IMG/VR virus record: IMGVR_UViG_3300010371_000021
Location: 1 to 42,400 of that record
Length of the DNA stretch: 42,400 nucleotides
Origin: a virus
Strand: one strand, 5' to 3'
In this document: positions 4,260-42,400 of the stretch, in pieces
Layout of the letters: every line of letters starts with the position of its first letter
Position numbering within the stretch: the first letter of the stretch is position 1
Translations under genes and position numbers: made by a program
The notes under the pieces: model-generated
Told to the model about the DNA's origin: nothing
Databases searched by the model: none
The model's input: only the letters and a program-made list of their open reading frames with translations

Positions 4260-4319
4260 TATAATGTTGTTGCGTTGCAGCACTCCACTCGGTTCTTAAT
4301 GAATCCTGTGGAGTTTTTT
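4260..4319 (+). promoter_or_regulatory. TATAAT box followed by a hairpin and T6 (promoter-proximal terminator or small RNA candidate)
   Basis: TATAAT at 4260-4265. Stem pairs 4282-4288 ACTCCAC with 4308-4314 GTGGAGT, followed by TTTTT at 4315-4319. Confidence 0.35.
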
Positions 4320-4647
4320 ACTTCCATCTTGCTGTATCTATTACAGACTGTTCCGACAGCTGCATATATAGTGGTAATATGTATAGAAAGCGGAAAAGAT
4401 ATGTACCCCCCTTCCCTACAATTCCTCAAGCGTAATAGGGAGTTATTGCGGCTTGAGCATCCTTTGTTTTGGGAATATGGACTCGTGTTGTAGACGTAAT
4501 GACGGTCTTGTAGAGTTTTTGGTTGTATGGTACTGTTCATTTGAGTAACCATTACTAGTCCTGATGTCTACTCATTAACTAAATTTGTAGGGGTCGGGTT
4601 GACTTCCCAGATTAGTTGTCGTATTATACTTACGACTAGTAATGCTT

Positions 4648-8515: not shown

Positions 8516-8696
8516 TGTAGAAGAAACGGAACATGATGTGACGATCACCTATACCCGTGCGGATGGTACTGGTAGTCACCAACGGTTTAACAAGTGGGAC
8601 TTAACAGATAAGTCACCCAAAGCAGTTGATAAGAATGCAGCTAAGGCCTTACGTAAACTAGCAGATAGAATTGAAGGAGCTACAACTAATGTCTAG
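8508..8696 (+). CDS. hypothetical protein (62 aa)
   Basis: GTG start with GGAG 8 nt upstream. Overlaps its neighbours by a few nt. Confidence 0.55.
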   Translation: MINVEETEHDVTITYTRADGTGSHQRFNKWDLTDKSPKAVDKNAAKALRKLADRIEGATTNV

Positions 8697-12946: not shown

Positions 12947-12947
12947 T

Positions 12948-13829
12948 ATGCAACCAAACACTAACGGTGGCGATGGAGTCACCATGGGACCAACTGGCGA
13001 GGAGCCAGTCGAAAAAGCCGCGCCTATTCAGGGTGAAGTGAGCGCCAACCAGGCCGAGCTAGAAAGTAAGATCGAACAAGAGCTTGGCTTACCTCATGTA
13101 GAAGCTAAGACAGAGAAGAAAACCGATGGACTACCAGAGGATACTGGGAGTGACGATGCAGGCGATACAACAGCAGGAGAACCAGGCAACCCAGAACAGC
13201 AAGAAGATGATGAAGATACTCAAGAAGAGCTGGAAGAACCGACCAAGACATTAGAACCATCTACTCCGTCCGATGAGGAGCTGTTTATCGAAGTCGAAGA
13301 CGCTGAAGGTGTAACCCACAAGATTAGCAAAATCGAGGATCTTCCAGAAGACTTTAGCCCGAAGAACAACAGGCAAATTCTGCAGATTGTCTCTCAGCTT
13401 AATAAGCTTGAAACGCAAATGGAACAGCGCGAGATCGCCCGCCAGGAAGCTGCTGATAAGGCCGAAACTGTCGCAGCACAGCAGGCTCAGTTCAGCGCCT
13501 GGGACAATGAAATCGAAGAGCTACACAAGCAGAAGCGTATTGATCCGAGCGATGTCGAGCGTGTCAATAAGGTGTTCGAACACATCGCTACGATCAACAA
13601 AGCCCGTGGAAAAGCGGGAAACCCGAACCTTATAACCAGTTTTGAAGACGGTTTGGATAAGTTCGAGATCGTCGAAGCCAAGAACAAGGCAGATGAAGAA
13701 AAGAAAAAGGAGAATGACAGGGCGAAGCTGAAGTCTAGTCTTATCGGTGGGAGTACGTCTACCGGTGGTGGCTCAGGCCAGCGCTATTACTCTGGTCGTT
13801 ACCGCAGCATGGATGACGTGCCCGTATAG
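12948..13829 (+). CDS. scaffolding protein (probable)
   Basis: GGAGGA SD. Highly acidic, with a coiled-coil-like E/K/Q-rich sequence. Lies directly between the portal and major capsid genes. Confidence 0.6.
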   Translation: MQPNTNGGDGVTMGPTGEEPVEKAAPIQGEVSANQAELESKIEQELGLPHVEAKTEKKTDGLPEDTGSDDAGDTTAGEPGNPEQQEDDEDTQEELEEPTKTLEPSTPSDEELFIEVEDAEGVTHKISKIEDLPEDFSPKNNRQILQIVSQLNKLETQMEQREIARQEAADKAETVAAQQAQFSAWDNEIEELHKQKRIDPSDVERVNKVFEHIATINKARGKAGNPNLITSFEDGLDKFEIVEAKNKADEEKKKENDRAKLKSSLIGGSTSTGGGSGQRYYSGRYRSMDDVPV

Positions 13830-23008: not shown

Positions 23009-24961
23009 ATGGCCAGCAGAGGGAACGACACTGATTTCGTAGGCCTGCCAAGCTTCATAGGTGGTGAGAGCCAGGACAGTAAGTTCGGCACGAAGTACCA
23101 GTACGACTATGGACGTCATATTGACGTCCGCAAAAAGGCGTCTGGTTTTAGCGTTTTGCCAGGTACCTCTAAAGCATCGGGGGGTGTTGTCACTGACCTT
23201 GTGCAGGATATGACGCAGATACCTAACGGAAATCGTTACGCCCTTGGCGATAGTGGAAATGTATATTTAGTAAGCACGGCTGGTGTGTGGAGTAAGATTG
23301 GTAACATTGGCCAAAACGGTGGTGCCGGTATTCTTTATCGCCCCGACAATGACTGTATCTACATTACGGGCCAGACGAAGATTGCTCGCATTAAATCTGT
23401 TAGCACAACACCGTTTTTAGACGTAAACTGGTTTCAGTACGGTATATCTACTGCAACCACCTGCTCCAAGAGTGGAGGTACAGCTACATACACACTCCCA
23501 CAGACAATAGGTGAGCAAGCTAGTGACATGCGCGCCTTTATAGCTGATATCGAGCCACTCATACGTATAGGTGTAAAACCTACAGTTGCCACCGGTAACT
23601 GGACATTGACCTTACACGATGACGCTAATAATCTTCTAGGGTCGGTAACTATTGCTGCTGCGAACCTTGTAGTGGGTCAGATAAACTATTTCACCTTTAA
23701 CACGCCAGTTCGGCTGTATATATCTGTTAATAACTTTACTTCTAGCTCAAGCGGTGGTCGAACATACCATTTTCACTTAACATCAAGCGTAACAGGTGAC
23801 AAGGTACAAACCACGACTGCTAATTCACTCGCAGATTGTGATATGGAGCTATGGGCCAATGCATTAGTGCAACCAAACAACGGCCTACACCCAATATATT
23901 CATTCGCTCAGTTCACGTTATTTGGCAATGAGAAGTACGTGGCCGCTTACGAACCATTACAGGACCAGCCCACCACATCGGACTTCCAACGTCATCGTCT
24001 AACGTTTCCGTCAGGTTACGAGACGAACGGAATTGCCCAATTAGATTTGTACGCTGCCATAACAGCTGAGCAACGCTCTACGAACACTACACAAGACTAC
24101 CAGAGTGGCAAGATGTTCCTGTGGGATGCTATTCAGACGACATATAACCGTTACTACGATATTCCTGAGGGGAGCCCAGAAGGTATATTCAGCCACAAGA
24201 ACGTCATATCGTTTATAGCTGGTGGGGCGCTCTATCAGTCTAGTGGTGGCCAGCCTATCAAAGTTAGGACGATACGCAACACAGACAGCGAATTCTCCAA
24301 CATAGCCGACTCTACCCACCTCTACCCACACATGATGACCGTACGTCGAGGTATCTTGCTTATAGGGTATCCGAGTTTCACTACTAATCAACTTCTTGAA
24401 CATGCCGTGTATGGGTATGGAACGCGGTCAAGCCAGTACCCACTCAGCTGGACCACAAGTTATACCATGTCGACGGGTAGCATTTTGAACAATGGTACGA
24501 ACAATCTGCGCTTAGGCATGGTTAAGAACAATGGTGACACCCTATACATATCATGGCGTGATGACAGTACAGGTACCGCGACATACGGCGTTGACGTGGT
24601 AAACAATAGCTCCGCACCAGCAAGCGATTTCCAAGTGCATATGCTACATTTCGACCAAGACGCGCCGTATAAGGAGAAACTGGCTAAGAAGGCGCTCGCC
24701 GTCTTCGACACCCTCCCTGACGATAAAAGTGTGTCACTACGTATGTGGTATCGTTTAAACAATGGAAGTCGCGTTTATTCTACTGATGATGGTACCCCTT
24801 ATGTTACTTCTGGCAATGTTGTACAGATAAAAATTCCCCAACAATTTATAGATATGCAAATAGGTTTGGAGGGCACTATAACAGGTACGATTAGTCCCTT
24901 CTGTCACGGTATATACTTAGCCTTCGATCCAGAGACATTACGTAACGAGGTGAGCCAGTAA
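23009..24961 (+). CDS. large tail structural protein (650 aa)
   Basis: Long ORF immediately after the preceding stop. Confidence 0.8.
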   Translation: MASRGNDTDFVGLPSFIGGESQDSKFGTKYQYDYGRHIDVRKKASGFSVLPGTSKASGGVVTDLVQDMTQIPNGNRYALGDSGNVYLVSTAGVWSKIGNIGQNGGAGILYRPDNDCIYITGQTKIARIKSVSTTPFLDVNWFQYGISTATTCSKSGGTATYTLPQTIGEQASDMRAFIADIEPLIRIGVKPTVATGNWTLTLHDDANNLLGSVTIAAANLVVGQINYFTFNTPVRLYISVNNFTSSSSGGRTYHFHLTSSVTGDKVQTTTANSLADCDMELWANALVQPNNGLHPIYSFAQFTLFGNEKYVAAYEPLQDQPTTSDFQRHRLTFPSGYETNGIAQLDLYAAITAEQRSTNTTQDYQSGKMFLWDAIQTTYNRYYDIPEGSPEGIFSHKNVISFIAGGALYQSSGGQPIKVRTIRNTDSEFSNIADSTHLYPHMMTVRRGILLIGYPSFTTNQLLEHAVYGYGTRSSQYPLSWTTSYTMSTGSILNNGTNNLRLGMVKNNGDTLYISWRDDSTGTATYGVDVVNNSSAPASDFQVHMLHFDQDAPYKEKLAKKALAVFDTLPDDKSVSLRMWYRLNNGSRVYSTDDGTPYVTSGNVVQIKIPQQFIDMQIGLEGTITGTISPFCHGIYLAFDPETLRNEVSQ

Positions 24962-25458
24962 TGGCAGAATTCTCTACACTTAAGCCTAATGAGTCTATCC
25001 CGTCTTCACCCGGTGTTGCTGCTGATGACGCTTTAGGCCTCACTAATCCTGACAGTATGCTAGCCGGTCAGCTGCGTGGTACACAGAACGTGGGTAGTGG
25101 TGGTACGCAGATAGACGCCGCAAACAACCGTATTGTGTTGGCCAACAACTCAGCGGTTACTAACGCCTCGGTTGGCGCAGGCATAGCCCTAGATGGCAAC
25201 TCAAGCACGATTACCATTACTAACTCAGATGGTGCCAAGGTCGGCATGGGTCTTATACCTGGTTCGACGACTGACTTTGGGTTCTTCGTAGTCGACTCGA
25301 ATGGAAACCTTGTTAGCAAGATCGTCGGCCCGACAATGTACGCCTACGACATCGCTAACGGTAAGGTGAACGTTATGCAGCTGCTGAAACTGCCGGATGG
25401 AAGTTACGGTTTTGCAGTAGCTAACACTGGACAAAATGTGTCCGCTGGCTTCTCATGA
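24961..25458 (+). CDS. tail-associated protein (165 aa)
   Basis: TAATG-coupled start. Confidence 0.75.
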   Translation: MAEFSTLKPNESIPSSPGVAADDALGLTNPDSMLAGQLRGTQNVGSGGTQIDAANNRIVLANNSAVTNASVGAGIALDGNSSTITITNSDGAKVGMGLIPGSTTDFGFFVVDSNGNLVSKIVGPTMYAYDIANGKVNVMQLLKLPDGSYGFAVANTGQNVSAGFS

Positions 25459-26180
25459 TAACCAACCCTGGGGCTTTACACCTCGCTGTACCTGTGAACA
25501 GGATTGACCAGATCATCGGAGTACATACCGGGGCGTTTATTATTAGCGCTCCAACCGCAGCGCCCGGTGGTTCACCAACCAATGCATCAGACAGCTTCAC
25601 CACAGGTTTTGGAGACACCTGTTTGTTCCAGGGCATATTCTCTGTGGACGGAGGAGCGAGTTGGAATGATTTTGGGTCTTATAAACCTAATCTGACAACT
25701 CCCGCTCAACCAGTACTACAGACAGTCACGTGCAGGGGATGGGTAACTCCAGCTGGAGTGTTTACCGCTTACGCTGAGAATAACTACGATCTAGTCCATG
25801 GATCTGGTGTATCGTACGTAGTCCAATACAAGGTTGCGTTTCTGGCCAAGGACGATCAGGGCGCCATTACTCCACTCCCCAGAAGCGAGATTCTCAATTA
25901 CAGTTCTTCCTTTAACTACCAGAAGATATACATAGGCAGTTCGTTTGCCAATGGTGGTGGCGCGACGACTATAGCGCATAACCTTGGTTACGTACCGAAG
26001 GTAAGGGCCTGGATAACGTCCTCTAGATCATCACCATTTCCAGCCAATAGCCTCTTGTCTTACGATTGGCCTGGTGGATCTAACTTTAACATCAAGGTTA
26101 ACAGCACTAATGCTGTCTTCGACAGCATTAGTGGGTATGGTACCGCAAATATACTATATAGGATATATTTGGATAGCTAG
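25455..26180 (+). CDS. tail-associated protein (241 aa)
   Basis: ATGA-coupled start. Confidence 0.8.
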   Translation: MITNPGALHLAVPVNRIDQIIGVHTGAFIISAPTAAPGGSPTNASDSFTTGFGDTCLFQGIFSVDGGASWNDFGSYKPNLTTPAQPVLQTVTCRGWVTPAGVFTAYAENNYDLVHGSGVSYVVQYKVAFLAKDDQGAITPLPRSEILNYSSSFNYQKIYIGSSFANGGGATTIAHNLGYVPKVRAWITSSRSSPFPANSLLSYDWPGGSNFNIKVNSTNAVFDSISGYGTANILYRIYLDS

Positions 26181-26567
26181 ATGATCATACCGAGTAAGCT
26201 TGCAGCAGCTAGTACCTTGGGAGGATTTAAAAACTATTTGTCAAGTAGTTTTTCAGTTAACGTGCCGACACAGAACGTTAATGCGGGTAACTTTATATCA
26301 TTTACGGCGTCTACAGCGCTATCTAACACTAATTCCATATCTCAAGTTCAGATACAATATAATGGTCTGTCTACTGACTACTACATTATGAACGGGTCTG
26401 TGACTACTGTCTGGTCAGCTGGTGCCCTACAAGTGCAATCCTACTACTCCTTCACCCCCACAACCCTCTCCGTCTTCACTGTCCTGGTGAACCAGAGTGG
26501 GGGGGTGTTGAATGTACCCAACATCACCATAAACTGCCGGGGATTCTTGTTCTTAGCGCCGTTCTAG
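26181..26567 (+). CDS. tail-associated protein (128 aa); its 3' part contains repeat copy 1
   Basis: ATG directly after the preceding TAG. Ends with TAGTAG, overlapping the convergent gene's stop in CTAG. Confidence 0.7.
   Translation: MIIPSKLAAASTLGGFKNYLSSSFSVNVPTQNVNAGNFISFTASTALSNTNSISQVQIQYNGLSTDYYIMNGSVTTVWSAGALQVQSYYSFTPTTLSVFTVLVNQSGGVLNVPNITINCRGFLFLAPF
26434..26510. repeat. 77-bp perfect direct repeat, copy 1
   Basis: Identical to 28019-28095 (TGCAATCCTACTACTCC...GGGGGGGTGTTG). Contains a G7 run at 26499-26505. Confidence 0.95.
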
Positions 26568-27073
26568 TAGCGAGGCTCGCTGAATAGACTGCAGCTGCCT
26601 TGATAATCAAAATAGTGGTAACCAATGGTCACACCGTCGCTACTGTGGAATGGATCAGTGTACTCTATCATGACAGGTGAAGTGAACAGCTTGTCGTAAT
26701 CGTCGTAGTTATACCCCTCGGAGCCCAACATTTTGTTCACACAAATGAACTGTGCAGCGAGTTGGTCACCTGTTATTCCGTGGGATATTGCCAGGTTTGT
26801 TACATAATCTTTTAACTTTTGCTTGTTTTGGTCGGGTGTAGGTGCGGACGGGGCAGTCTGTTGTGCCTCTACAGGCGTCACAGGAGCCGCAGGAACCGTT
26901 TCAATGGGTTTTGACGTAGTTAGTGGGGTTTCACTAGTATCGGGCGTTGTAGAGGCTGATTTTACGTCAGAAGCGACTTTTGATGTCGACTTATGCGTAT
27001 TAGTCGCAAAAACTGCGCCTGTCCCCAGTGAGAGGACTGTGAAAACGGTAATAATTAGGTAAATCCGTCTCAT
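26564..27073 (-). CDS. secreted protein with signal peptide, Pro/Thr-rich linker and Cys-containing C-terminal domain
   Basis: MRRIYLIITVFTVLSLGTGAVFA signal-like N-terminus, a P/T/S/A linker and a YTDPFH motif. Confidence 0.75.
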   Translation of the reverse strand: MRRIYLIITVFTVLSLGTGAVFATNTHKSTSKVASDVKSASTTPDTSETPLTTSKPIETVPAAPVTPVEAQQTAPSAPTPDQNKQKLKDYVTNLAISHGITGDQLAAQFICVNKMLGSEGYNYDDYDKLFTSPVMIEYTDPFHSSDGVTIGYHYFDYQGSCSLFSEPRY

Positions 27074-27106
27074 TTGTATCTATGATAGTATAAAAAATAT
27101 AGGTTG

Positions 27107-27427
27107 TCAATAGCAAGTTGTGTCTGTGAACTGGTTCTTTATCCCGTACGAATATGACGAGCAATAGCTTGGTGCCCTCTGCACCTGTGGGACAGAAGTT
27201 ACAGAAGAACAGTTCACATAGATGTGGAATGGGTCGTAAGTTGGGCAGTTCCCCGTATACGTTGTTTCTGGGCCCCTATTACTGCCCTTTAAATACCCGA
27301 GCTTGAATCCAGCATTTTCTCCAGCGCTATATGCCGATTTATAGATGTAGTATTTCGTTGTATAGAATGTTCCCGCGATCGTCGCCACCAAAACGAAAGT
27401 CGTGATTACGAAAAAGATTTTCTTCAT
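27107..27427 (-). CDS. small membrane-anchored/secreted Cys-rich protein
   Basis: Preferred start is MKKIFFVITTFVLVATIAG (ATG at 27427). Contains a PTYDPFH motif and 5 Cys. Confidence 0.7.
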   Translation of the reverse strand: MKKIFFVITTFVLVATIAGTFYTTKYYIYKSAYSAGENAGFKLGYLKGSNRGPETTYTGNCPTYDPFHIYVNCSSVTSVPQVQRAPSYCSSYSYGIKNQFTDTTCY

Positions 27428-27435
27428 TATTGTAT

Positions 27436-27444
27436 AATATACCA
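27436..27444 (-). promoter_or_regulatory. extended -10 promoter TGGTATATT, 8 nt upstream of ATG 27427 (leaderless candidate)
   Basis: The minus strand reads TGGTATATT-ATACAATA-ATG. No SD. Confidence 0.4.
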
Positions 27445-27544
27445 CTTAACAGATGACGAAGATTATTTGACAACTGCTTCTACCAACCTTTGTTTTGCTT
27501 CACCTCTGTTACGGACGTCGTAGAATCAGCATTGTGCGACATAA

Positions 27545-27778
27545 CTACTTCAAATTACGGCTTTTCATGACATTGTCGCACAGTTTTACAAAGGCGTGGC
27601 CTGGATTGTTTGACTTACGTAAACAGTAGTCCAGGAGCTCTTCTATGTCTTTTTCACTCAGTTTTTGAACTATGAGCGCTACGAAACGGTGATCTAATGT
27701 GGAATCGTGTAGTTTTCTCTGTAACCTTTCAGTCTGTACCTCGATAATCGATTGAGCTAACGCAGCTTCCTTGATCAT
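27545..27778 (-). CDS. small helical protein (possible regulator); start uncertain (27778 ATG or 27877 GTG)
   Basis: ORF 27545-27877. The C-terminal ..EELLDYCLRKSNNPGHAFVKLCDN.. resembles ..MELVNKARKSGNDPQRLFFWMLKN.. of 36492-36776. Confidence 0.5.
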   Translation of the reverse strand: MIKEAALAQSIIEVQTERLQRKLHDSTLDHRFVALIVQKLSEKDIEELLDYCLRKSNNPGHAFVKLCDNVMKSRNLK

Positions 27779-28018
27779 CGATTGTTTAGAGAGTGGGTGA
27801 TTGCTGAAGTCCACTTGCTTTCTCTTTCTACCCGTGCTAGGATGAAGACATCTCTGTAGACATCCCCAAGGTAACACTTGGGGTTTTCTTTACACTTTTT
27901 ATGCAACTGACGGATAGCACGTGTACTTAGGGCTCTCCGTGGGCTAGTCTGATTCTCTGTAGACTATACTTGCCTACATTTAATCACAAGTTAACGCACT
28001 GAACAAGTATTTTACCCC

Positions 28019-28095
28019 TGCAATCCTACTACTCCTTCACCCCCACAACCCTCTCCGTCTTCACTGTCCTGGTGAACCAGAGTGGGGGGGTGTTG
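28019..28095. repeat. 77-bp perfect direct repeat, copy 2
   Basis: Identical to 26434-26510. G7 run at 28084-28090. Confidence 0.95.
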
Positions 28096-28128
28096 GGGAT
28101 TCTGTGGATAGCTAGTATAGTATGGATT

Positions 28129-28941
28129 ATGACCCCTACAGCAAATCTTCCATCTGCTCAGGATGCCCTCACTACGCTCAACAGTTTCCAGCAACCAGAC
28201 TCTGGGAGCCTCTTGTCCGCTGCTCAGCAAAAATATGGCGTTCAGGGCTTGCAAGACCGTGTTAACACCTACAAGACACTCACCAATAACCTAACTGGTG
28301 CTATATCTGCAGTAGACCCATCTGTCACCGGCCGTACGGCCGGTAGCCTTGTTACCGAAGGTCAACGCAGCGCGTTGGTTGATCGCGAGCGAACACCACT
28401 AGTCGGTCAGTTAGGCACGGCTCAACAGGGTGAGTCCGAGGCCAACAACGACTTAGGCAAAGCCGAAACCGATGTCAATAACGAGGTATCCTCTCAGAAA
28501 CAGGATGCCCAGAATAAGTACAATCAGCTACTCCAAACCTACCAAATTGCTAACGAGCGCGAACAGAGCGCCGCCCAAGAAGCAGCGGACGCAGCGAAGC
28601 AGAAAGAGGCTATACGCGAGTTTGATGTTGGACAGGCTAATGATCTTGCCAAATCAGCCGCGGGCCGGGCAGCATCTGCTCCTAACCCAGCTGCTGGTTA
28701 CAGCGTCAAACAGCTTACTAGCGGTAACAAGGCGTATACAGGACCGAATGGGCAGACTAACTTGTATCAGTATGCGTCGGCGATCGCAGGGGGTGATCCA
28801 AACGGCACTTATAATGAGATTTTGGGCCAACTTAAGACGGGTTCACCAACTGATAAGGCAGCTTTCAACAAGGTTGCGAAGATGTCAATGCCCGACGCAA
28901 TCAATTACCTCAAAACGCATAATAGCTACATTTTTGATTAA
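28129..28941 (+). CDS. internal-virion/tail-associated protein (270 aa); GTG 28072 inside the repeat is an alternative start
   Basis: ORF 28072-28941. ATG at 28129 (MTPTANLPS...) lies just beyond the repeat. Confidence 0.7.
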   Translation: MTPTANLPSAQDALTTLNSFQQPDSGSLLSAAQQKYGVQGLQDRVNTYKTLTNNLTGAISAVDPSVTGRTAGSLVTEGQRSALVDRERTPLVGQLGTAQQGESEANNDLGKAETDVNNEVSSQKQDAQNKYNQLLQTYQIANEREQSAAQEAADAAKQKEAIREFDVGQANDLAKSAAGRAASAPNPAAGYSVKQLTSGNKAYTGPNGQTNLYQYASAIAGGDPNGTYNEILGQLKTGSPTDKAAFNKVAKMSMPDAINYLKTHNSYIFD

Positions 28942-28943
28942 CT

Positions 28944-30749
28944 ATGCCGACGTACGACCCATTCAATATCCGTGGTGGCACAACTGCCACAGCTACAAAG
29001 GGCAGTACCAGCTCGAACTTTATTGGGGGCACCCCAAAGTCTAATGTAGGCCGCACCTATGATCCATTTGGTATAAACCAAAGCACTTTGCATACACCAA
29101 CTGCTTCAGCGACTAATAATAGCAGTCCAAAAAATCAAAATAATAAACCAGCAGGCTCGAGCCTATTCAGCAAAGTAAAGAACGTCGTTAAAGGGGCGGC
29201 TAGTGACGCCAAGACAACACTTGTAGATAAGCCTCTTAACACGTTAGCAGCTGGGGCTAGTGGCGTTATTGGTCTGGGTGAGGCTGGCGTACAGGCCGCC
29301 ACGGGCAACAAGAAGGGCGCGAAGACAACGCTAACCGCCACACAGGAAGCGGCGAATCAATTCCTTGATAAGGGCGTAGGAGGTAAAGGGGGTTTTCTTA
29401 ATTCCAAACAAGCCGCCTCTAGAGGAACCGGCGGTAAGGGTTACGTAAATGACTTTGTAAAACCAACTGCTCAAGGGGCGACTGATGTTTTGCCCTATGT
29501 CTTTCCAGCTGGTAAGGCAGCAAAGGGTGCAAGTCTGCTGGTCAGAGCTGGTAAGTCTGCTGCGAGTAATGCCCTAGTAAGCGGTGGAACTACTGCCGCC
29601 AATGAAGCAATCCAGGGTAATATAACTAAGGATGGTGGTAAAGAAATCGCAAAAAGCGTTGCATTAGGTGCCGCTCTTGGTGCTGGTGGATCTTTATTAC
29701 ATGGCGCAGCTAAAGAAGGCGTAGCACGCGTAAGCACTAAAGAGGCAAGCTCAGCGCTTAACAACGCCAAGACAAACACACTGCTGAACGCCGCAGATAA
29801 GAGTACCGAACCTGCTACTGTTTATAATCCGTCTAACCCAAAGGTGAAAGAGCTTGTGGAAGCTCGTCAAAATGAAGCTCAATCCCAGGCCGCACCCGAC
29901 CAGGCTGCCGACAAACAGAGGGCAGACGCTGTGGCGACTGCTGAAAAGAACCAGGAACAAGGTAAAAAGGTAGATCGCCAGATTGAGCTCATCCAGGCAA
30001 AGGGTAAAGACAGTGAGACGGGATTAAGCAATGTTGATAAGACCAAACTGAACCACTTACAAGAGGATAAGCAACAGCTGGAAGACAATACCAAGCAGAC
30101 TCTTGCCGCGACAGTGACACCTACTGAGCAAGCCGCTAGCCCTATCGAACACGTCGCCACTCCCGTACCTGATTCTTCCATTCCGAAAGAGGCACCTGAA
30201 CCACAGCCACAACAGGATAGAGGAGTTAGTAAAGTTGCTCAGTCTGTTCAAGAAAAAGCAGTTGCACGAGGACTCAAGAATGACTTCGGCGGTCCAGGTG
30301 GATATGACAAGGTGACGATCGCCGACCAGGCGGCTAAAGCCACGAAGGTCGCCAATGACCGCCCACTACTAGATAGCATTATAAACGGTGATAAACCATT
30401 ACCCGATGGCCTTCGTGCTACTGCTCTTATTAAAGCTGTTGAAGAACACCCTGTACTTGGGAAAGATCCAGAGCTTATTAATCGCTTGTCCCAAGCCGAA
30501 CATTTAACTGGCGAATCTAGCCGGTCGGCACAAGAGTTACGATTGGCGGCTGAACGCTCACCTACAAGTCCTGTAGAGGCGGTGAGACAAGTACGACAGG
30601 CTAGAGCTGAGGCTGTTGAACGCAAGACTGGGAAGAGTGTAAGTAAAGCGACGAGCGACGAGCTTAAGGCCATCCGAGCTGCTAAAGCGACTGTTCCAAA
30701 GCCAACTAAAGAGACATTCGCGAGCTTCGTCGATTCATTGCGCTGCTAG
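28944..30749 (+). CDS. large Ala/Gly/Lys-rich internal-virion (ejection?) protein with two N-terminal TYDPF motifs
   Basis: 601 aa. MPTYDPFNIRGG... and ...GRTYDPFGINQ. Confidence 0.75.
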   Translation: MPTYDPFNIRGGTTATATKGSTSSNFIGGTPKSNVGRTYDPFGINQSTLHTPTASATNNSSPKNQNNKPAGSSLFSKVKNVVKGAASDAKTTLVDKPLNTLAAGASGVIGLGEAGVQAATGNKKGAKTTLTATQEAANQFLDKGVGGKGGFLNSKQAASRGTGGKGYVNDFVKPTAQGATDVLPYVFPAGKAAKGASLLVRAGKSAASNALVSGGTTAANEAIQGNITKDGGKEIAKSVALGAALGAGGSLLHGAAKEGVARVSTKEASSALNNAKTNTLLNAADKSTEPATVYNPSNPKVKELVEARQNEAQSQAAPDQAADKQRADAVATAEKNQEQGKKVDRQIELIQAKGKDSETGLSNVDKTKLNHLQEDKQQLEDNTKQTLAATVTPTEQAASPIEHVATPVPDSSIPKEAPEPQPQQDRGVSKVAQSVQEKAVARGLKNDFGGPGGYDKVTIADQAAKATKVANDRPLLDSIINGDKPLPDGLRATALIKAVEEHPVLGKDPELINRLSQAEHLTGESSRSAQELRLAAERSPTSPVEAVRQVRQARAEAVERKTGKSVSKATSDELKAIRAAKATVPKPTKETFASFVDSLRC

Positions 30750-30771
30750 TTTATTGATAGGCTATAGTGTA

Positions 30772-30780
30772 TGATACAAT
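30772..30780 (+). promoter_or_regulatory. extended -10 promoter TGATACAAT upstream of the HNH gene
   Basis: TGnTAnAAT motif just upstream of ATG 30782/30791. Confidence 0.35.
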
Positions 30781-30781
30781 T

Positions 30782-31330
30782 ATGGAATTCATGCCAAAGG
30801 GCGTAAAAGGTTTTCAAAAAGGGCATCCTGTCCCTGAATCTGTTAGAAGGAGAGTTTCGGAAAGTCGAAAAGGTCATAAACAGTCGCCAGAGACGATAGC
30901 CAAAAGAGTCGCTAAGCTAAAAGGCAAAACTGGCCACGTGTGGACTGATGAACAACGTAAGGCGGCAAGATTGAGGGTCTTGGGTAGTAAACAGTCCCCT
31001 GAACTTATCGCTAAGCGTTTTGCGAGCAGAAGAGGTTACAGGCATTCAGAGGAAACAAGAAGTAGAATTGCTGAATCCCAGAAAGAAGAACGGTCTGCTC
31101 AATGGAAAGGTGATAAAGTTGGTTATCATGGTTTACATAGTTGGGTTTACAGGAAACTAGGTAGAGCCGAAATCTGTAGCAACTGTGACTCTACGATAAA
31201 TGTCGAATGGTCTAACGTAAGCCACAGTTATAAAAGAGACGTTAATGATTGGCAACAACTATGTGCCAGATGTCATAGGGCTTATGATAAAGGGAGAAAT
31301 GACATAAGACTTCTTTTTGGTGTAGTCTAA
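30782..31330 (+). CDS. HNH homing endonuclease with NUMOD3-type DNA-binding repeats
   Basis: Repeated H.QSPETIAKR / KQSPELIAKR / HSEETRSRIAES units (NUMOD3-like). C-terminal ...NVEWSNVSHSY..DVNDWQQLCARCHRAYD is the HNH signature. The start could be 30767, 30782 or 30791. Confidence 0.85.
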   Translation: MEFMPKGVKGFQKGHPVPESVRRRVSESRKGHKQSPETIAKRVAKLKGKTGHVWTDEQRKAARLRVLGSKQSPELIAKRFASRRGYRHSEETRSRIAESQKEERSAQWKGDKVGYHGLHSWVYRKLGRAEICSNCDSTINVEWSNVSHSYKRDVNDWQQLCARCHRAYDKGRNDIRLLFGVV

Positions 31331-35698: not shown

Positions 35699-35953
35699 AT
35701 GAACGACTATGTAACCAGTCTGATCCGAACGTATGTACCGGTCGCAGTAGGTGCTTTGGCAGCATGGTTAGAGCAAAAAGGCCTAAACCTTGACCCGAGC
35801 GCTACGGCAGGCCTTATGACCTTCCTAACGGCCCTTTCCACTGCTGTGTACTACTTAGTAGTGCGTTTGTTAGAGAAATACGCCTCACCGCGTTTTGGCT
35901 GGCTGCTTGGTTGGGCAAAATCGCCGACATATCCTGCTCCTACTAAGCAGTAG
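35699..35953 (+). CDS. holin-like two-TM membrane protein
   Basis: AAGGAG SD. RTYVPVAVGALAAWL and LMTFLTALSTAVYYLVV hydrophobic helices. Adjacent to the endolysin. Confidence 0.6.
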   Translation: MNDYVTSLIRTYVPVAVGALAAWLEQKGLNLDPSATAGLMTFLTALSTAVYYLVVRLLEKYASPRFGWLLGWAKSPTYPAPTKQ

Positions 35954-35976
35954 GAGCCAAGCATACCCCATATAGA

Positions 35977-36016
35977 GAAACCCCCTGTGCATTACCTGAC
36001 GCAGGGGGTTTTCTAA
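35977..36016 (+). terminator. intrinsic terminator after the lysis module
   Basis: GAAACCCCCTG ... CAGGGGGTTTTC followed by a T-rich tail. Confidence 0.7.
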
Positions 36017-36093
36017 ACAAAGGGTTAAGAGGTATCGAGGACCAATTAACCTGGGGTGTAGTATACCGTTTTTTAATCTAAATGTCCAGGGTG

Positions 36094-36102
36094 TGCTATA
36101 CT
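36094..36102 (+). promoter_or_regulatory. extended -10 promoter TGCTATACT
   Basis: GTGTGCTATACT, the same motif as at 10846 and 36316. Confidence 0.45.
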
Positions 36103-36130
36103 GCTTATGCATCATAAATGGGAGTCTTGT

Positions 36131-36226
36131 ATGCGCAAAGTTACTATTAGTGTTCATAGGCGCACTGCGTCTAAAATCACTGTGAATGTACACAAGCCTA
36201 GTTATTTGGATTATATTCAATATTAG
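36131..36226 (+). CDS. possible mini-ORF (31 aa)
   Basis: GGGAG SD 6 nt upstream. MRKVTISVHRRTASKITVNVHKPSYLDYIQY. Lies between a promoter and a terminator. Confidence 0.3.
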   Translation: MRKVTISVHRRTASKITVNVHKPSYLDYIQY

Positions 36227-36272
36227 GGTATTATCTAAGGGCAGGACTCCCAAGCCTTGCTCTTAGATTGAG

Positions 36273-36491: not shown

Positions 36492-36776
36492 ATGTCAACA
36501 GAATCTCTCAGTGAAACAGTTAAACATTACAGTGACAGTAATTTAAACATTAAAAACTACAGTGACAGTAAACACAGTAATATCACTGTAACAGACGTTT
36601 TTAAAAACTTAGTAGACGTAATCCCTAATGACGATTATATGCCTTACTACGTAAGTCGATTTAAACAACTAGGTTATACTAGATTTATGGAATTAGTCAA
36701 CAAGGCTCGAAAGTCTGGGAATGATCCACAACGCTTGTTTTTTTGGATGCTTAAGAACAATGAGTTAGTGAGATGA
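36492..36776 (+). CDS. hypothetical protein (94 aa)
   Basis: GAAAGG SD. The C-terminal motif is shared with 27545-27778(-). Confidence 0.7.
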   Translation: MSTESLSETVKHYSDSNLNIKNYSDSKHSNITVTDVFKNLVDVIPNDDYMPYYVSRFKQLGYTRFMELVNKARKSGNDPQRLFFWMLKNNELVR

Positions 36777-37768
36777 TAGACGAGATTATATCCCCAAGCT
36801 ACATGGTGGGTGGTTGTGTTAGGGACGTACTTTTAGGTCGTGAACCCAAAGACTGGGATTTTGCCACGCCCCTGTTGCCAGATGAAGTGGAGGCAAAAGT
36901 ACGGGCATCAGGTCGGAAAGCTCATATCACTGGCAAACGTTTCGGCACCATTGGCTTTAAGTTTGAAGATAAATTTGTCGAGGTGACCACTTTTAGGCAC
37001 GAAAAATATGGTAAAACGCGTAAGCCAGAAGTTCAATTCGTTACTTCGATTAATGACGATCTTGCACGACGTGATTTTACTATTAACGCTATTGCCAAGA
37101 GAGGCACAAAGATCATTGATCCATTTAATGGACGTGAAGATTTACAAATGGGGCTTATCAAGACAGTCGGTAAGCCTACAGAACGATTCAATGAAGACCC
37201 GTTACGTATGCTTAGGGCGGTTCGGTTTCAGGCACAGCTTGGGTTTATTATTGAAGAATATACGCTCGCCTCGATAAACAAGAATGCACATAAGATTCTG
37301 AGCATCAGTCGCGAACGGTGGATGCAAGAACTTGATAAGCTGCTTGTCGCAGATTACGTGGTTCTAGCTCTTCACACACTATTCGCCACAGATCTTATCA
37401 AGTTTTTGTTACCCGAACTCCGTATCCAGATCGGGTATGATCAGAATAGTGATTGGCACGAATATAGTTTAGCTGAACACACTATAAAGACTATTGGGGC
37501 TACTCCCGCTAGTACCACTTTACGTTGGGCCGCCCTATTGCACGATATAGGTAAACCTTTCGTACGTACTGATAATAAGCGTGGAAGTAGCAACTACGTG
37601 TTCCACGATGTTGTTGGTGCTGAAATGATTTACGGTATTGGAAAGAGGCTTAAATGGTCCAATGAACGCTTACAGATGATGCAAGAGCTTGTCAGAAACC
37701 ACCTAAGCGATGACAGCCCATTGCGTAATGCCGACAATTCAAGTAAACGTTTAGGAATAAAATTATGA
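36773..37768 (+). CDS. cca: tRNA nucleotidyltransferase (CCA-adding enzyme) with HD domain
   Basis: GGCVRDVLLGREPKDWDFAT (class II NTase G-box and DxD), RRDFTINA, and HDIGKP (HD). Confidence 0.9.
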   Translation: MIDEIISPSYMVGGCVRDVLLGREPKDWDFATPLLPDEVEAKVRASGRKAHITGKRFGTIGFKFEDKFVEVTTFRHEKYGKTRKPEVQFVTSINDDLARRDFTINAIAKRGTKIIDPFNGREDLQMGLIKTVGKPTERFNEDPLRMLRAVRFQAQLGFIIEEYTLASINKNAHKILSISRERWMQELDKLLVADYVVLALHTLFATDLIKFLLPELRIQIGYDQNSDWHEYSLAEHTIKTIGATPASTTLRWAALLHDIGKPFVRTDNKRGSSNYVFHDVVGAEMIYGIGKRLKWSNERLQMMQELVRNHLSDDSPLRNADNSSKRLGIKL

Positions 37769-38394: not shown

Positions 38395-39432
38395 ATGAGT
38401 CTTCTACAACCCGCTTCAAACCAAACTGCCTACCTAAAAGCCGGTATTCTCGGTTTCCAAGGTTCTGGTAAAACATACACTGCCTCACGCTTAGCAACTG
38501 GCTTAGCTAAGATGAGTGGTAAGGCAAAACCAAGAGTCGCCTTCTTCGATACGGAAAAAGGTTCAGATTTTCTCGTCAAGTATTTCAATGACCAAGGTAT
38601 ACAATTCGATGTTGTCAAGTCACGCGCATTCTCGGACCTTTTAGAGTTCATTAAAGAGGTGCAACAAGAGCAGTATGACGTGGCCATCATCGACTCAGTG
38701 TCACATATCTGGCGAGATCTTACAGAGAGTTACCAGAACAAACTCCGACGTCAGAATGGCCTACTATTCCAGGACTGGTCCAAAGTGAAAGGTGAGTGGC
38801 GACGCTTTACCGATGCATTCATCAACAGCAACATTCACATGATCGTTCTAGGACGCGCTGGCTATGAGTACGACTTCGATACCGATGAATCTGGCAAAAA
38901 AGAGCTCATTAAGACCGGAACCAAGATGAAGGCAGAGGGTGAGTTCGGTTATGAATCAGACATCTTGCTGGAGATGGAGCGCATCAAGGACGGTAAGAAA
39001 ACGATTAATCGTTGCTACGTCCTGAAGGACCGAACCGACACTATTGACGGCAAACAGATCGACTTCCCGAAGTTCGAAGACTTTAAAACAGTCATTGACT
39101 ACCTGAATATCGGTGGTGAACACAAAGGCATAGATGTTGACCGCAATTCTGAGGATATGTTTGACGATCCAGACAAGTCCTATGCCAAAGAGCGTGAGAT
39201 GCGTGAGATTGCCCTAGAAGAGCTGCAACAGGAGCTTGTGCTCAATGACCTTGCTGGAACGTCTTCGGCCACTCAGAAGCGTCGTGTGGAGCTCTTAATG
39301 GAAGTATTTGGGACATCTAGCAAAGCAGCAATCGAGGGGATGAGGTCACAACAGATTCGGGACGGCATTATGCAGATTCGGTCGATACTTGGAGAAGAGA
39401 GATCTAGAGAATTAACAAACCAGACTTCGTAA
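38395..39432 (+). CDS. AAA_24/Sak4-like RecA-fold ATPase
   Basis: AGGAGG SD. Walker A GFQGSGKT, Walker B-like VAIIDSVSHIW, and ..VLKDR.. near the C-terminal part of the core. Confidence 0.75.
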   Translation: MSLLQPASNQTAYLKAGILGFQGSGKTYTASRLATGLAKMSGKAKPRVAFFDTEKGSDFLVKYFNDQGIQFDVVKSRAFSDLLEFIKEVQQEQYDVAIIDSVSHIWRDLTESYQNKLRRQNGLLFQDWSKVKGEWRRFTDAFINSNIHMIVLGRAGYEYDFDTDESGKKELIKTGTKMKAEGEFGYESDILLEMERIKDGKKTINRCYVLKDRTDTIDGKQIDFPKFEDFKTVIDYLNIGGEHKGIDVDRNSEDMFDDPDKSYAKEREMREIALEELQQELVLNDLAGTSSATQKRRVELLMEVFGTSSKAAIEGMRSQQIRDGIMQIRSILGEERSRELTNQTS

Positions 39433-39792: not shown

Positions 39793-40062
39793 ATGAGCTA
39801 CGTTCGAAACGCTAACACAGCAGACGAAGCTCAACCGATAACACTGCATCCAGCCGGCAACGGCTACGGCAACGGCTACGGCGACGGCTACGGCGACGGC
39901 TACGGCGACGGCTACGGCGACGGCTACGGCTACGGCTACGGCGACGGCTACGGCGACGGCTACGGCAACGGCTACGGCGACGGCTACGGCGACGGCGACG
40001 GCAACGGCTACGGCGACGGCTACGGCGACGGCTACGGCTACGGCGACGGCGGAATTCTGTAG
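39793..40062 (+). CDS. (Gly-Tyr-Gly-Asp/Asn)n low-complexity repeat protein (89 aa)
   Basis: ATG directly after TAG 39790-39792. A 21-aa unique N-terminus is followed by about 16 GYG[DN] units. Confidence 0.6.
   Translation: MSYVRNANTADEAQPITLHPAGNGYGNGYGDGYGDGYGDGYGDGYGYGYGDGYGDGYGNGYGDGYGDGDGNGYGDGYGDGYGYGDGGIL
39856..40053. repeat. 12-bp tandem repeat array (GGCTACGGCGAC)n with variants
   Basis: Read directly: about 16 units, with GAC/AAC and GGCTAC/GGCGAC variants. Confidence 0.95.
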
Positions 40063-40064
40063 TT

Positions 40065-40226
40065 ATGAGGTGGAATCTCCGAAGATCTATCCTGGGAAAA
40101 TCTATATACACAGCGGGGAATAAGACTGGCTACCAGATTAGTCCGAACGATATCTTCACGATTGTCTATAACTTCCAGGATATGACGTTCAGAGTAATAC
40201 TCAGGAGAAACGATGGCGCAGAATAG
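40065..40226 (+). CDS. possible small ORF (53 aa)
   Basis: Fills the 40062-40213 gap. MRWNLRRSILGKSIYTAGNKTGYQISPNDIFTIVYNFQDMTFRVILRRNDGAE. Confidence 0.4.
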   Translation: MRWNLRRSILGKSIYTAGNKTGYQISPNDIFTIVYNFQDMTFRVILRRNDGAE

Positions 40227-40497
40227 AGCACAGAAGAAGCTAAACGTAGAGCACTACGTTCCAGCTCTCGAAGGTTTCGCAATAGATAATGACGTGGATC
40301 TGCAAGTATTCGGTGATGCAGGTATCCACTGGAGGTTATCAGGTGGGTGTGTCCTAGACTGTTGGCCTACTACCGGAAGATTCTGGATAAAAGAGTTACC
40401 ACTTATCCGTTCAACGTCACACGTCATCGAACGCAAGGGCAAGCTGCCCTGGGACTATATGGAACTAGATAAGTTTTTGAGGAGACTATTTCTATGA
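40213..40497 (+). CDS. hypothetical protein (94 aa)
   Basis: AGGAGA SD. Confidence 0.7.
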   Translation: MAQNRAQKKLNVEHYVPALEGFAIDNDVDLQVFGDAGIHWRLSGGCVLDCWPTTGRFWIKELPLIRSTSHVIERKGKLPWDYMELDKFLRRLFL

Positions 40498-40637
40498 GCA
40501 CTGCGGAAGAGTTCTTAAGTGACCTTGTGAGAGATGTACTATCTGTAGCACCAATGGACCGCCAAAAGATCGTTAGAGGATACGCTAGACACCTCGAGGC
40601 GAGAGAAGTGTCGTGGGGGAAGCGCGCTAATGTATAA
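40494..40637 (+). CDS. small hypothetical protein (47 aa)
   Basis: ATGA-coupled start. Below the track cutoff. Confidence 0.5.
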   Translation: MSTAEEFLSDLVRDVLSVAPMDRQKIVRGYARHLEAREVSWGKRANV

Positions 40638-40788
40638 AAGATGGAAACAGTATCCAATAAAGAGATCTGTTCAGCTAAAACAAGAGACATTCGCTGACCT
40701 ACTTGAAGCGGCTGACTCGAAAGGGATGAAGTACGGCACACTTATGAGAAAAATAATCGAGGAATGGTTAGAAAGGGGTGATGGGTAG
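40630..40788 (+). CDS. ribbon-helix-helix (CopG/Arc-like) protein (52 aa)
   Basis: ..KRSVQLKQETFADLLEAADSKGMKYGTLMRKIIEEWLER.. matches the RHH pattern. Confidence 0.5.
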   Translation: MYKRWKQYPIKRSVQLKQETFADLLEAADSKGMKYGTLMRKIIEEWLERGDG

Positions 40789-40904: not shown

Positions 40905-41221
40905 CACCTACTTACCAGCAACGACTAGAAGCGATTCTACGCGGTATGCGCTTTAGCACTAATTTTGATAGCGTCTTAGAGAAGACTGCCGCTGACGACA
41001 AGGTGTACGCAGAGACGGTAGCTGCTATTAATGCACTGAATGTGGACACCTCGAGGCACATTTGCACTCTGCCCCTCAACATCGTCAACATATCCCGTAA
41101 AGACCTCGGTACTCCTACAGATCGAGTAGTCATAACCGATGAACAGGGCAATAAATACGTAAAAGTAAGTAAATTGAACACTGTTGATGCAGTTGTTCGG
41201 AAGGTGTTGGAGGAGATATGA
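40901..41221 (+). CDS. hypothetical protein translationally coupled to rtcB (106 aa)
   Basis: ATG at 40901 after a GGGGGAAAG SD. ATGA overlap with the rtcB start. Confidence 0.7.
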   Translation: MTPTYQQRLEAILRGMRFSTNFDSVLEKTAADDKVYAETVAAINALNVDTSRHICTLPLNIVNISRKDLGTPTDRVVITDEQGNKYVKVSKLNTVDAVVRKVLEEI

Positions 41222-42387
41222 TACAAATTAACAAAAAACTCTATAGCTGGGCCTCTATCATTGAGCCGAACACTGAAGCACAGGCCATCACGACAAGTAG
41301 TATGCCTTTCATATGGCATCACTATGCGTTAATGCCCGATGCTCATCTAGGTGCAGGAGCGACGGTCGGTTCGGTAATACCTACATTAGGAGCTATCATG
41401 CCTGCCGCCGTAGGTGTAGATATTGGTTGTGGAATGATAGCCATAAAAACCCAATTTACTAAAGAAGATTTAATACTTAGAGATTTAAAGACGCTACGCG
41501 AAAGCATCGAACGTTCCATCCCCCTATCCGCAGGTGCATACAATCTTGACATAAAAGAGACCGCTAAGTCTAAGATCACCGAGTTGGAGGCAAAGGCGGG
41601 CGACAGACTTAAATTCTACGATGGTTTCAAGAACGACTGGCGCGTACAACTTGGAACGTTGGGATCGGGCAATCATTTTATTGAGGTAAGTCTTGACGAG
41701 AAAGATAGCGTATGGCTGTTTCTACACTCTGGCAGTCGAGGTATAGGCAACAAGATAGCCACATATCATATCAAAATCGCCCAGGATTTGTGCAAACGTT
41801 GGTTCATACCACTACCTGACCCAGATTTAGCTTATCTTATAGACGGGACGAAAGAGTTTGGTAATTATATAACTGATCTGAATTGGGCCCAGCTCTTCGC
41901 GTTGCTTAATCGCGAAGAGATGATGGATAGACTTATTAACGATTTTGAGCATTGGATCGGTAGAAAAACTGAAGAACAAGAGAGGATCAATTGTCACCAC
42001 AACTTCACGCTCAAAGAGCATCATTTCGGCAAAGATGTGTGGTTAAGCCGTAAGGGTGCTATACAGGCAGATGCTGGGCGGCTGGGGCTTATTCCTGGGT
42101 CCATGGGTACTGCTAGTTACGTCGTGGAAGGTTTGGGTAATCATCTGGCATTTGATAGTTCTCCGCATGGAGCAGGACGCGTTTATTCACGTTCTGTAGC
42201 ACGCAGAAAGTTCACCTTTGATGATTTAGAAACGGCGATGGAAGGGATTGAGTACCGCAAAACAGATGCATTTCTTGACGAAATACCAGCGGCTTATAAG
42301 GATATCGACCAGGTGATGGAAGATGCAAAGGATTTGGTGAAGGTCAAACACACATTACACCAAATATTGAACGTAAAGGGGGATTAG
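41218..42387 (+). CDS. rtcB: RtcB 3'-phosphate/5'-hydroxyl RNA ligase
   Basis: PDAHLGAGATVGSVIP, VGVDIGCGM, GSGNHFIE, LHSGSRGIGN, CHHNF, PGSMGTASYVV and SSPHGAGR are all hallmark RtcB motifs. Confidence 0.95.
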   Translation: MIQINKKLYSWASIIEPNTEAQAITTSSMPFIWHHYALMPDAHLGAGATVGSVIPTLGAIMPAAVGVDIGCGMIAIKTQFTKEDLILRDLKTLRESIERSIPLSAGAYNLDIKETAKSKITELEAKAGDRLKFYDGFKNDWRVQLGTLGSGNHFIEVSLDEKDSVWLFLHSGSRGIGNKIATYHIKIAQDLCKRWFIPLPDPDLAYLIDGTKEFGNYITDLNWAQLFALLNREEMMDRLINDFEHWIGRKTEEQERINCHHNFTLKEHHFGKDVWLSRKGAIQADAGRLGLIPGSMGTASYVVEGLGNHLAFDSSPHGAGRVYSRSVARRKFTFDDLETAMEGIEYRKTDAFLDEIPAAYKDIDQVMEDAKDLVKVKHTLHQILNVKGD

Positions 42388-42400
42388 TATGACAACCCCA
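42278..42400. repeat. Terminal overlap: identical copy of 1-123
   Basis: See feature 1-123. Confidence 0.95.

Follow-up and report, generated by a model that had tools for sequence, protein, structure and literature searches.

Morons, in the concept reportedly introduced by Hendrix and colleagues, are independently transcribed accessory genes located between the late-operon genes of phages. Classical morons usually share the orientation of the late operon and have both promoter and terminator; tail regions are well-known hot spots for morons, and partial gene duplications at recombination joints are just as familiar. In the N/nut system of phage lambda, a small regulator is the first gene after a leader that has conserved boxes and phage-specific hairpins. 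Phage T5 encodes a receptor-blocking superinfection-exclusion protein, Llp, next to its receptor-binding tail gene (PMC4728585, PMC9586334), and the cognate Llp proteins of T5 and BF23 are non-homologous and encoded at the same position (PMC4728585). Here, we describe an island of three antisense genes, c169, c106, and c89, in the genome of an uncultivated tailed phage (IMG/VR record IMGVR_UViG_3300010371_000021, positions 1 to 42,400). This whole stretch of 42,400 nucleotides (nt) is referred to as the window. The island lies between two virion-module genes, p128 and p270, and is flanked by two copies of a perfect 77-bp direct repeat.

The variable site between p128 and p270

Our preferred reading, to which we give a probability of about 60%, is that of an accessory island at a conserved variable site, formed by three separately promoted antisense genes of differing histories, with the 77-bp repeat as a recombination scar. 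The features concerned are as follows (aa, amino acids; positions are those of the window).

26181-26567, plus strand: p128 (128 aa), a conserved virion-module gene, intact, with the invariant C-terminus ...N.R..LF.APF (alignment A2)
26434-26510, no strand assigned: repeat copy 1, inside functional p128, coding for QSYYSFTPTTLSVFTVLVNQSGGVL
26564-27073, minus strand: c169, with a hydrophobic N-terminal signal or anchor, a Pro/Thr-rich linker, and a C-terminal domain of ~85 aa with two invariant Cys
27082-27110, minus strand: promoter-like site of c169, TTGACA-17-TATCAT (11/12 consensus matches), 8 nt before the ATG, of the leaderless type
27107-27427, minus strand: c106, an orphan with an N-terminal transmembrane helix and a 4-Cys ectodomain
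27545-27814, minus strand: c89 (89 aa, GTG start at 27814), a predicted small four-helix protein
28016-28019, no strand assigned: novel joint between the inner part of p128 and the upstream end of the c89 module
28019-28095, no strand assigned: repeat copy 2, a non-functional fragment of the p128 3' end
28096-28128, plus strand: decayed tail, reading GGGATTCT, GT, GGATAGC, TAGTATAGTATGGATT, and then ATG, with TATAGT 7 nt before the ATG
28129-28941, plus strand: p270 (270 aa), a virion-module gene found directly after the p128 homolog in island-free relatives

About 25 related contigs were gathered from viral and metagenome collections via p128 and the gene p241, plus an exact look-up of homologs; p128 homologs are present in about 20 related contigs. 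The original prediction, a first reading of the window, had suggested a comparison with related phages lacking the insertion, and these were readily found. At least eight contigs (L001/L012/L020, L018, L014, L017, L024, L025, L027, and L029) have an empty site, in which the p128 homolog is followed by a p270-type gene after 57-100 bp. In L001, the closest long relative, the two homologs are 57 bp apart and the island is absent. At least eight contigs (L019, L023, L022, L003/L016, L004/L015, L034, L035, and L036) carry one minus-strand gene of the c169 family between the p128 and p270 homologs. The end of L032 encodes the C-terminus of p128, convergent to the gene that comes after its c89 homolog, and therefore a c89-type cassette occupies the same locus in another member of the group. 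This is the single contig with a c89 cassette at this site, and the three genes together are found in the window. By this comparison, the p128-p270 gap is shown to be a conserved variable site that can be empty or contain one c169-family gene or a c89-type cassette. We also considered the start of L032 as a p128-derived repeat similar to copy 2, but both have only CAATCC in common, which is too little to decide.

Genes are thus present or absent at the same position among related genomes, as in morons and other accessory genes, and the GC content of the island (0.42-0.46) is below that of its flanks (~0.51). The original prediction had described a recently acquired, moron-like insertion holding the only three minus-strand genes of the genome. 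The accessory nature of the genes, their own promoter-like sites, and their absence from L001 agree with a moron-like insertion, but a single insertion unit of three genes does not fit the left boundary, which is ancestral. There are indeed three minus-strand open reading frames (ORFs) between the copies; that no others exist genome-wide is plausible but unproven, with four more minus-strand ORFs of at least 100 aa (3279-3638, 4169-4552, 35885-36253, and 40424-40741) that mostly overlap plus-strand genes or are junk-like.

The left boundary is best seen in c169. This gene and p128 are convergent and, as had been noticed from the window alone, their stops share a 4-nt palindrome, CTAG (26564-26567). 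The c169-family genes of relatives also overlap the p128 stop, by the 4-nt palindrome CTAG or TTAA, and a TTGACA-17-TAnnnT site is found 6-8 nt before their ATG (layout read in L019, L023, L004, and L034). The comparison shows the p128/c169 junction and the c169 promoter to be ancestral, and since the stop overlap recurs in relatives without repeats, the left edge of the island is an old gene junction. Judging from its distribution, c169 is an accessory gene that resides in this group of phages and is sporadically missing. None of the carriers checked for flanking repeats (L019, L023, L022, and L004) has them. Relatives showing the same arrangement without repeats had been named in the original prediction as evidence of an ancient vertical architecture; they exist, but for c169 only (L019, L023, L022, L003/L004, L034, L035, and L036).

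This long residence of c169 at the site could also mean that the three genes are an old vertical unit of the lineage, the repeat having arisen by local tandem duplication followed by deletion, unrelated to any acquisition. Contig L037 points in the same direction, with an identical three-gene layout consisting of a c89 homolog, a small ORF with a transmembrane helix and Cys (~636-893), and a transmembrane protein with a Pro/Thr/Ser-rich linker (955-1503). However, the second and third genes of L037 show no detectable homology to c106 and c169, the closest long relatives carry none or one of the genes, and the tail of copy 2 resembles the island-free arrangement, with the p128 end beside the p270 leader. 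We consider such an old unit unlikely.

The 77-bp repeat and its origin

The accessory island with a joining scar, which is the reading we prefer, depends on the nature of the repeat. On recheck, 26434-26510 and 28019-28095 were 100% identical over 77 nt, and a scan of the whole window found this pair to be its only long dispersed exact repeat. The sole longer one is the overlap between the ends of the window (1-123 and 42278-42400, identical over 123 nt), which points to a genome of 42,277 bp that is either terminally redundant or was assembled as a circle. A G7 run is present in both copies of the 77-bp repeat (at 28084-28090 in the second). Copy 1 is in frame within the p128 ORF (26181-26567), whereas copy 2, which ends 33 nt 5' of the p270 ATG (28129), is in frame with p270 through a frame that is open from 28003. 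The identity of the copies, their G7 runs, and their frames had been described from the letters of the window and were confirmed here, together with a weaker similarity past the repeat: after a 28-nt gap, GGGATTCT is found again (GGGGATTCT with the shared last G) at 26539-26547 and 28095-28103. We estimate the chance of such a collinear 8-mer at ~7e-4. Since GGGATTCT recurs beyond the repeat, the duplicated segment would once have comprised at least 115 bp of the p128 3' end. The sequence of GGGATTCT is that of this phage's own p128 allele, and relatives deviate from it by 1-3 nt at this spot.

In every relative, whether it carries c169 or not, the region 5' of p270 contains a conserved unit that begins with a TGnTAYAMT box, continues with GGATAGYCC at the start of a hairpin, and ends with a T-run and a ribosome-binding site (L001 9103-9165 and equivalent positions in L018, L014, L019, L023, and L034). 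This unit amounts to a promoter with an immediate terminator-like hairpin. In island-free relatives, the last p128 codons are located ~20 nt from the unit, of which GGATAGC, corresponding to the 5' flank of the relatives' hairpin, is all that is left in the window. The order of the remnants in the tail is suggestive of the island-free arrangement after three deletions, namely, 28 nt of p128, ~35 nt with the stop codon and the -10 box, and ~18 nt of the hairpin. Taken at the sequence level, this shows the right copy to be a dead, truncated piece of this phage's own p128 3' end, placed directly before p270. The original proposal that the insertion had duplicated its target is not sustained by such a decayed fragment. 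At the other edge of copy 2, the similarity between the window and L037 (27428-28015, 78% identical) ends 3 nt short of the repeat; with the similarity ending at 28015 and the repeat beginning at 28019, positions 28016-28019 are therefore the only new joint.

We propose that one illegitimate crossover or template switch joined two genomes. The first would have contributed p128, the island, and everything up to the end of the c89 module. The partner would have been a near-identical genome, joined inside its p128, which was still adjacent to p270, possibly at the short CAATCC microhomology. This crossover would have duplicated at least 115 bp of the p128 3' end, so that p128 remained intact at the left edge of the island and a redundant fragment of it came to lie at the right edge. 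From the latter copy, 28 bp, the stop codon of p128, and the unit of promoter and hairpin that precedes p270 would later have been deleted. A Campbell-type single crossover of a circular fragment would lead to the same product, and the AAA_24 (Sak4-like) protein encoded at 38395-39432 could promote recombination on short homologies. The joining event looks recent, because the 77 bp carry zero substitutions in this assembly. Capture by recombination, which the original prediction offered as its second option, fits the data better than any transposition.

A transposon with target-site duplication was rejected, as we found no transposase domain and no terminal inverted repeats, the duplication of at least 77-115 bp is coding, and one boundary is ancestral. 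An att-flanked integrative cassette was rejected as well, given that there is no recombinase in the island and that the repeats are absent from the carriers examined (L019, L023, L022, and L004). More generally, the repeats might be att-type or recombination sites of a self-mobile cassette, similar to an integron cassette or to a small element that restores the 3' end of its target. Direct repeats derived from the 3' end of a target gene around a discrete set of genes are indeed the outcome of a Campbell-type event, and the c89 module is found in unrelated phage contexts. However, no integrase, transposase, or other recombinase is encoded in or beside the island, the relatives examined lack flanking repeats, the left boundary corresponds to an ancestral gene junction, and the right copy is decayed beyond the 77 bp, all of which makes a self-mobile cassette very unlikely. 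No integrase was found among the scanned large ORFs of the genome.

The source of the window is a metagenomic short-read assembly, and mis-assembly had been named from the start as something that could overturn the duplication. The window is identical to the MEGAHIT contig k141_114562 (ENA ERZ27256652), and with a final k-mer of 141, longer than the 77-bp repeat, one k-mer is enough to cover a copy together with the sequence on its two sides. A Logan unitig (k=31) of SRR6185312 corresponds exactly to 26481-28048, that is, the island plus 30 nt of either copy, and these ends are what is expected from a de Bruijn graph when both repeat contexts exist. In a third protein catalogue from the same run, the ORF of P0016 reads TSILPL, located upstream of c89, and continues across copy 2 to p270, with one nucleotide difference from the window in copy 2 (SFPPTT for SFTPTT). 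Both junctions are supported by two other assemblies, and the structure is probably not an assembly error. A second haplotype, or an error-bearing catalogue, of the same run shows single-residue differences in p241, c169, and copy 2, which would suit a chimera of co-existing strains with and without the island, but an artefact of this or another kind is extremely unlikely in view of the k-mer length, the unitig, and the P0016 link.

Recombination between the copies would remove the cassette and fuse p128 in frame to p270, as originally predicted. The computed event deletes 1,585 bp and gives a fusion of 391 aa formed by residues 1-110 of p128, the linker GILWIASIVWI, and p270. This product is devoid of the C-terminal residues shared by all p128 family members (N118, R120, L123, F124, A126, P127, and F128) and, because the fusion lacks this invariant C-terminus, deletants are probably defective, which would retain or stabilise the island. 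No p128-p270 fusion protein was found in a collection of 15 billion sequences.

The repeat could nevertheless have been kept as useful, either as a switch that yields the p128-p270 fusion or the loss of the island in part of the population, or with copy 2 supplying p270 with a 5' region, a promoter, or an N-terminal extension. Its perfect identity despite the adjacent decay, the frame that copy 2 shares with p270, and the Sak4-like protein of the phage are compatible with this idea. The usual promoter-hairpin unit of p270 is gone and there is a weak candidate promoter, TTGGGG-17-TATAGT (28093-28121), located partly in copy 2 and 7 nt before the ATG. On the other hand, the fusion would be without the invariant C-terminus of p128 and is not on record in the collection cited above, none of the relatives examined has such a repeat, the GTG at 28072 has no ribosome-binding site, the G7 run is not conserved, and one catalogue has a substitution in copy 2 only. 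Thus, we regard a useful repeat as quite unlikely. The G7 runs had been put forward as slippage sites, a proposal we abandon, as relatives have no G run at this point (they read CAGACAGCTGGG, CAGTCTGGTGGA, CAGTCGGGAGGA, and CAAACGGCGGGC) and G7 corresponds to two Gly codons plus a G. The resemblance seen earlier between a VDS-TAG end after copy 2 and the LDS-TAG end of p241 comes down to one 11-mer, TGGATAGCTAG, present at the p241 end (26170-26180) and in the tail of copy 2 (28105-28115), with ~0.5 such matches expected by chance according to our estimate.

Several points weigh against an accessory island joined by recombination. No cassette-less or donor genome with >90% identity was found, so that our account of how many recombination steps took place, and in which direction, is a reconstruction and not an observation. 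The tail and the relatives' spacer agree over a short length (7-8 nt), which could be due to chance. Zero substitutions over 77 bp beside three apparent tail deletions are somewhat odd, and this identity may reflect a very recent event or else gene conversion or some function preserving the copy. The promoter-like sites upstream of each island gene, although conserved in homologs, are consensus matches only. The function proposed below has no homology behind it (no Pfam, PHROG, PADLOC, or PDB hit, and no lipobox in c169), and the sole link to a host is a weak match of a neighbouring protein to a TM7 phage, at 31% amino acid identity.

Island genes, control sequences, and the rest of the genome

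The control sequences of c106 and c89 add to the list of features.

27436-27444, minus strand: extended -10 box TGGTATATT, 8 nt before the c106 ATG, conserved in L037
27815-27986, minus strand: c89 leader and putative promoter (extended -10 box TGATTAAAT at 27978-27986), non-coding and conserved (alignments A3 and A9)
27945-27966, 27864-27883, and 27847-27864, minus strand: leader hairpins P1, P2, and P3, respectively, kept in all five sequences
27864-27890, plus strand: P2 together with TTTTCTTT, intrinsic-terminator-like on this strand and facing the late operon, with the A-run and hairpin kept in 5/5 homologs

None of the island proteins had a significant match in Pfam, PHROGs, or PADLOC. 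The c169 family is small and phage-specific; when the last 90 residues were used in an exhaustive HMMER search, no more than 8 genuine clusters were retrieved from 1.84 billion representatives, all of them of 163-180 aa and with the same build as c169. The residues N83, Q108, C111, Y123, Y126, D156, G159, and C161 are invariant in alignment A8; the family motifs N..KL, QW/F.C(V/I)(D/N)K, GY.DY, and Y.YFD.(P)G.C are present, and the gene is convergent with a p128 homolog. A distant ORF of L004 also belongs to the family (hhalign 97.5%). Two candidates were rejected, P0009 (1699 aa), which is a repetitive junk ORF, and the 182-aa protein of L037, which is not detectably homologous. No relative of c169 was found in the PDB, and its single-sequence model (pLDDT 51) is too poor for a fold search. 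The other envelope candidate, c106, retrieved only itself among 5.8 billion clusters, and a word-indexed protein search with c169 and c106 returned self matches only. Neither of them has a lipobox Cys. We found no terminator-like site 3' of the c169 stop within the scanned region, and the c169 transcript therefore probably runs antisense into p128.

For c89, the start at GTG 27814 is preferred to those originally given (27778 or 27877) because of the conserved N-terminus VDF(S/T)xHPL, the lack of an internal Met in L037, and the choice of this start by gene callers in L031 and L037. Homologs were found in four other contigs (proteins P0004, P0005, and P0020, plus that of L033), L037 (~90% amino acid identity), L032 (80%), L031 (69%), and L033 (29%). 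L031 carries NinG and WDGH genes, and in L033 the c89 homolog comes after the lysis genes; these are different phages, and the c89 gene therefore moves between phages. Profile-based searches for loci with c89 relatives in viral and genome collections found none, a search with the DNA pattern of the leader added a single locus from viral contigs and nothing from genomes, and neither c169 nor c89 had a tblastn match among GenBank phages. The AlphaFold model of c89 has four helices (pLDDT 81) and no match in the PDB, the sole match being one uncharacterised phage protein in BFVD. The protein p94 (36492-36776), which looked like a c89 paralog by eye, was dropped (BLASTP E = 0.91).

The ~140-200 nt located 5' of c89 are conserved as much as the gene itself, with counterparts in L037 (65-224), L032 (64-232), L031 (4589-4746), and L033 (9553-9716). 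The blocks GCCCACG, AAGTACA, and CCGTCAGT are invariant. In the predicted pairing, 92% of the cells are paired, versus 22-46% in slid controls, and in six pairs both partners have changed; the invariance of one G-U pair points to an RNA on the sense strand. The 11-mer GTCTACAGAGA appears twice, at 27954-27964, where it corresponds to the 5' arm and loop of P1, and again in P3 (27851-27861), and it varies from phage to phage in both copies together. No Rfam 15 match was found at E up to 1 within 26000-28400. With a structure drawn from only five sequences, the leader may be a new cis-regulatory RNA. At the level of sequence conservation, the c89 gene and its structured leader are shown to be a module common to other phages, and what comes after it can differ: 3' of the c89 homolog, L032 encodes at 710-1096 a non-homologous small protein with an N-terminal transmembrane helix.

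A bolder proposal, which we consider a long shot, is that c89 and its ~140-nt leader form an undescribed mobile regulatory module, in which c89 would recognise the P1 and P3 hairpins of its own leader RNA and control both itself and the envelope proteins of the genes that follow, which evolve fast. In this phage, the island would additionally be "locked" by the decayed p128 fragment, since recombination between the repeats would destroy an essential virion gene.

Elsewhere, the genome codes for proteins typical of a tailed phage, i.e., a large terminase, a GroEL-like chaperonin, an SU10-type adaptor, a BppL_N domain protein, and a CHAP endolysin, as well as for a CCA-adding enzyme, RtcB, the AAA_24 protein, and a tRNA-Ser. 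The GroEL/Cpn60-like chaperonin gene (8671-10314) adjoins the terminase and head genes. Three of these products, the tRNA-Ser(GCT) (4075-4160), the CCA-adding enzyme with an HD domain (36773-37768), and the RtcB RNA ligase (41218-42387), together resemble a tRNA repair kit. An ORF with NUMOD3 and a weak HNH-like match, of the homing-endonuclease type, is located within the virion gene block (30767-31330), and 3' of the virion genes of L001 there is a Cys-rich ORF (12602-13201) that looks like an HNH protein by eye. The 12-nt unit GGCTACGGCGAC forms a tandem array at 39819-40094, with ~16 or more copies and few variants. A 69-nt direct repeat with 78% identity (285-353 versus 783-851) is found in the adjacent small ORFs 112-444 and 559-969, which are probably paralogous early genes. 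Extended -10 boxes with the sequence TGCTAYAMT are found at seven intergenic sites on the plus strand (10848, 20588, 20705, 33300, 34832, 36094, and 36318), several of them within a few nucleotides of a start codon, and they are probably the promoter type of this phage; the -10 box of c106 belongs to the same kind.

Regarding the host, the annotated relatives are a TM7 phage and one uncultured Caudoviricetes genome only, with ~30% amino acid identity over a 650-aa protein neighbouring the island. A p128 profile search of reference genomes gave no match and therefore no host or prophage link, a DNA search of GenBank phages with 24900-29100 gave nothing, and this phage is not described in the Saccharibacteria rhizosphere paper.

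Predicted function and likeness to known systems

The Cys-containing proteins c169 and c106, predicted to be exported or membrane-anchored, would be expressed from sigma-70-like promoters of the leaderless type, independently of the late operon. The cell envelope would be their site of action, with superinfection exclusion or receptor masking as the most plausible roles, while c89 would be a small regulator tied to its own leader RNA. Late transcription would run antisense through the island up to the plus-strand terminator-like hairpin (27864-27890), and the convergent layout would separate the expression of the island from late expression. That c169 and c106 are receptor-blocking or exclusion proteins like those encoded beside the tail genes of T5-like phages is an analogy to which we give roughly one chance in three; the Pfam, PHROG, PADLOC, and PDB sequence searches linked neither of them to an exclusion-protein family (Llp, Cor, Sie, or Imm-like).

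None of the findings on the island alters a general principle, and the mechanism is not new. The locus is a worked example of phage mosaicism, where a fixed variable site accumulates accessory genes and the joining scar is still visible in this genome, and it adds two unnamed protein families (c169 and c89) and a candidate structured leader RNA. The conserved convergent stop overlap of the c169 family and the c89 leader module are of modest additional interest. If the host is a Saccharibacteria-type epibiont, for which there are weak indications, the attachment between cells could be influenced by surface proteins that the phage encodes.

Compared with morons, the island genes are also absent from close relatives, located between conserved virion genes, provided with their own promoter-like sites, of lower GC content, and predicted to act at the envelope. 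However, all three are antisense, c169 is convergent with p128 and shares stop-codon bases with it, c169 is a long-term resident of the site across distant relatives, and a partial duplicate of p128 remains as a scar. The comparison with elements of Campbell-type integration, or elements that restore a 3' end, is similar in that a direct repeat taken from the target 3' end flanks the insert and the left copy keeps the gene intact, but here there is no recombinase, the repeat is the phage's own coding sequence, the right copy is decayed, and the left junction is ancestral.

The likeness to T5 Llp does not extend to sequence or structure, and c169 and c106 are not lipoproteins. It is found instead in the location of a small exported-protein gene beside tail or virion genes, in its expression apart from that of the late genes (a prediction in our case), and in the replacement of genes 2 and 3 of the window by non-homologous genes at the same position in L037. 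Likewise, the resemblance to lambda N/nut is one of layout only and is drawn from five examples, as c89 is predicted to be a folded four-helix protein and has no arginine-rich motif. In that layout, c89 comes first after the promoter and leader, the leader has invariant blocks, and the sequence of the 5' arm and loop of P1 is repeated in P3 and co-varies with it.

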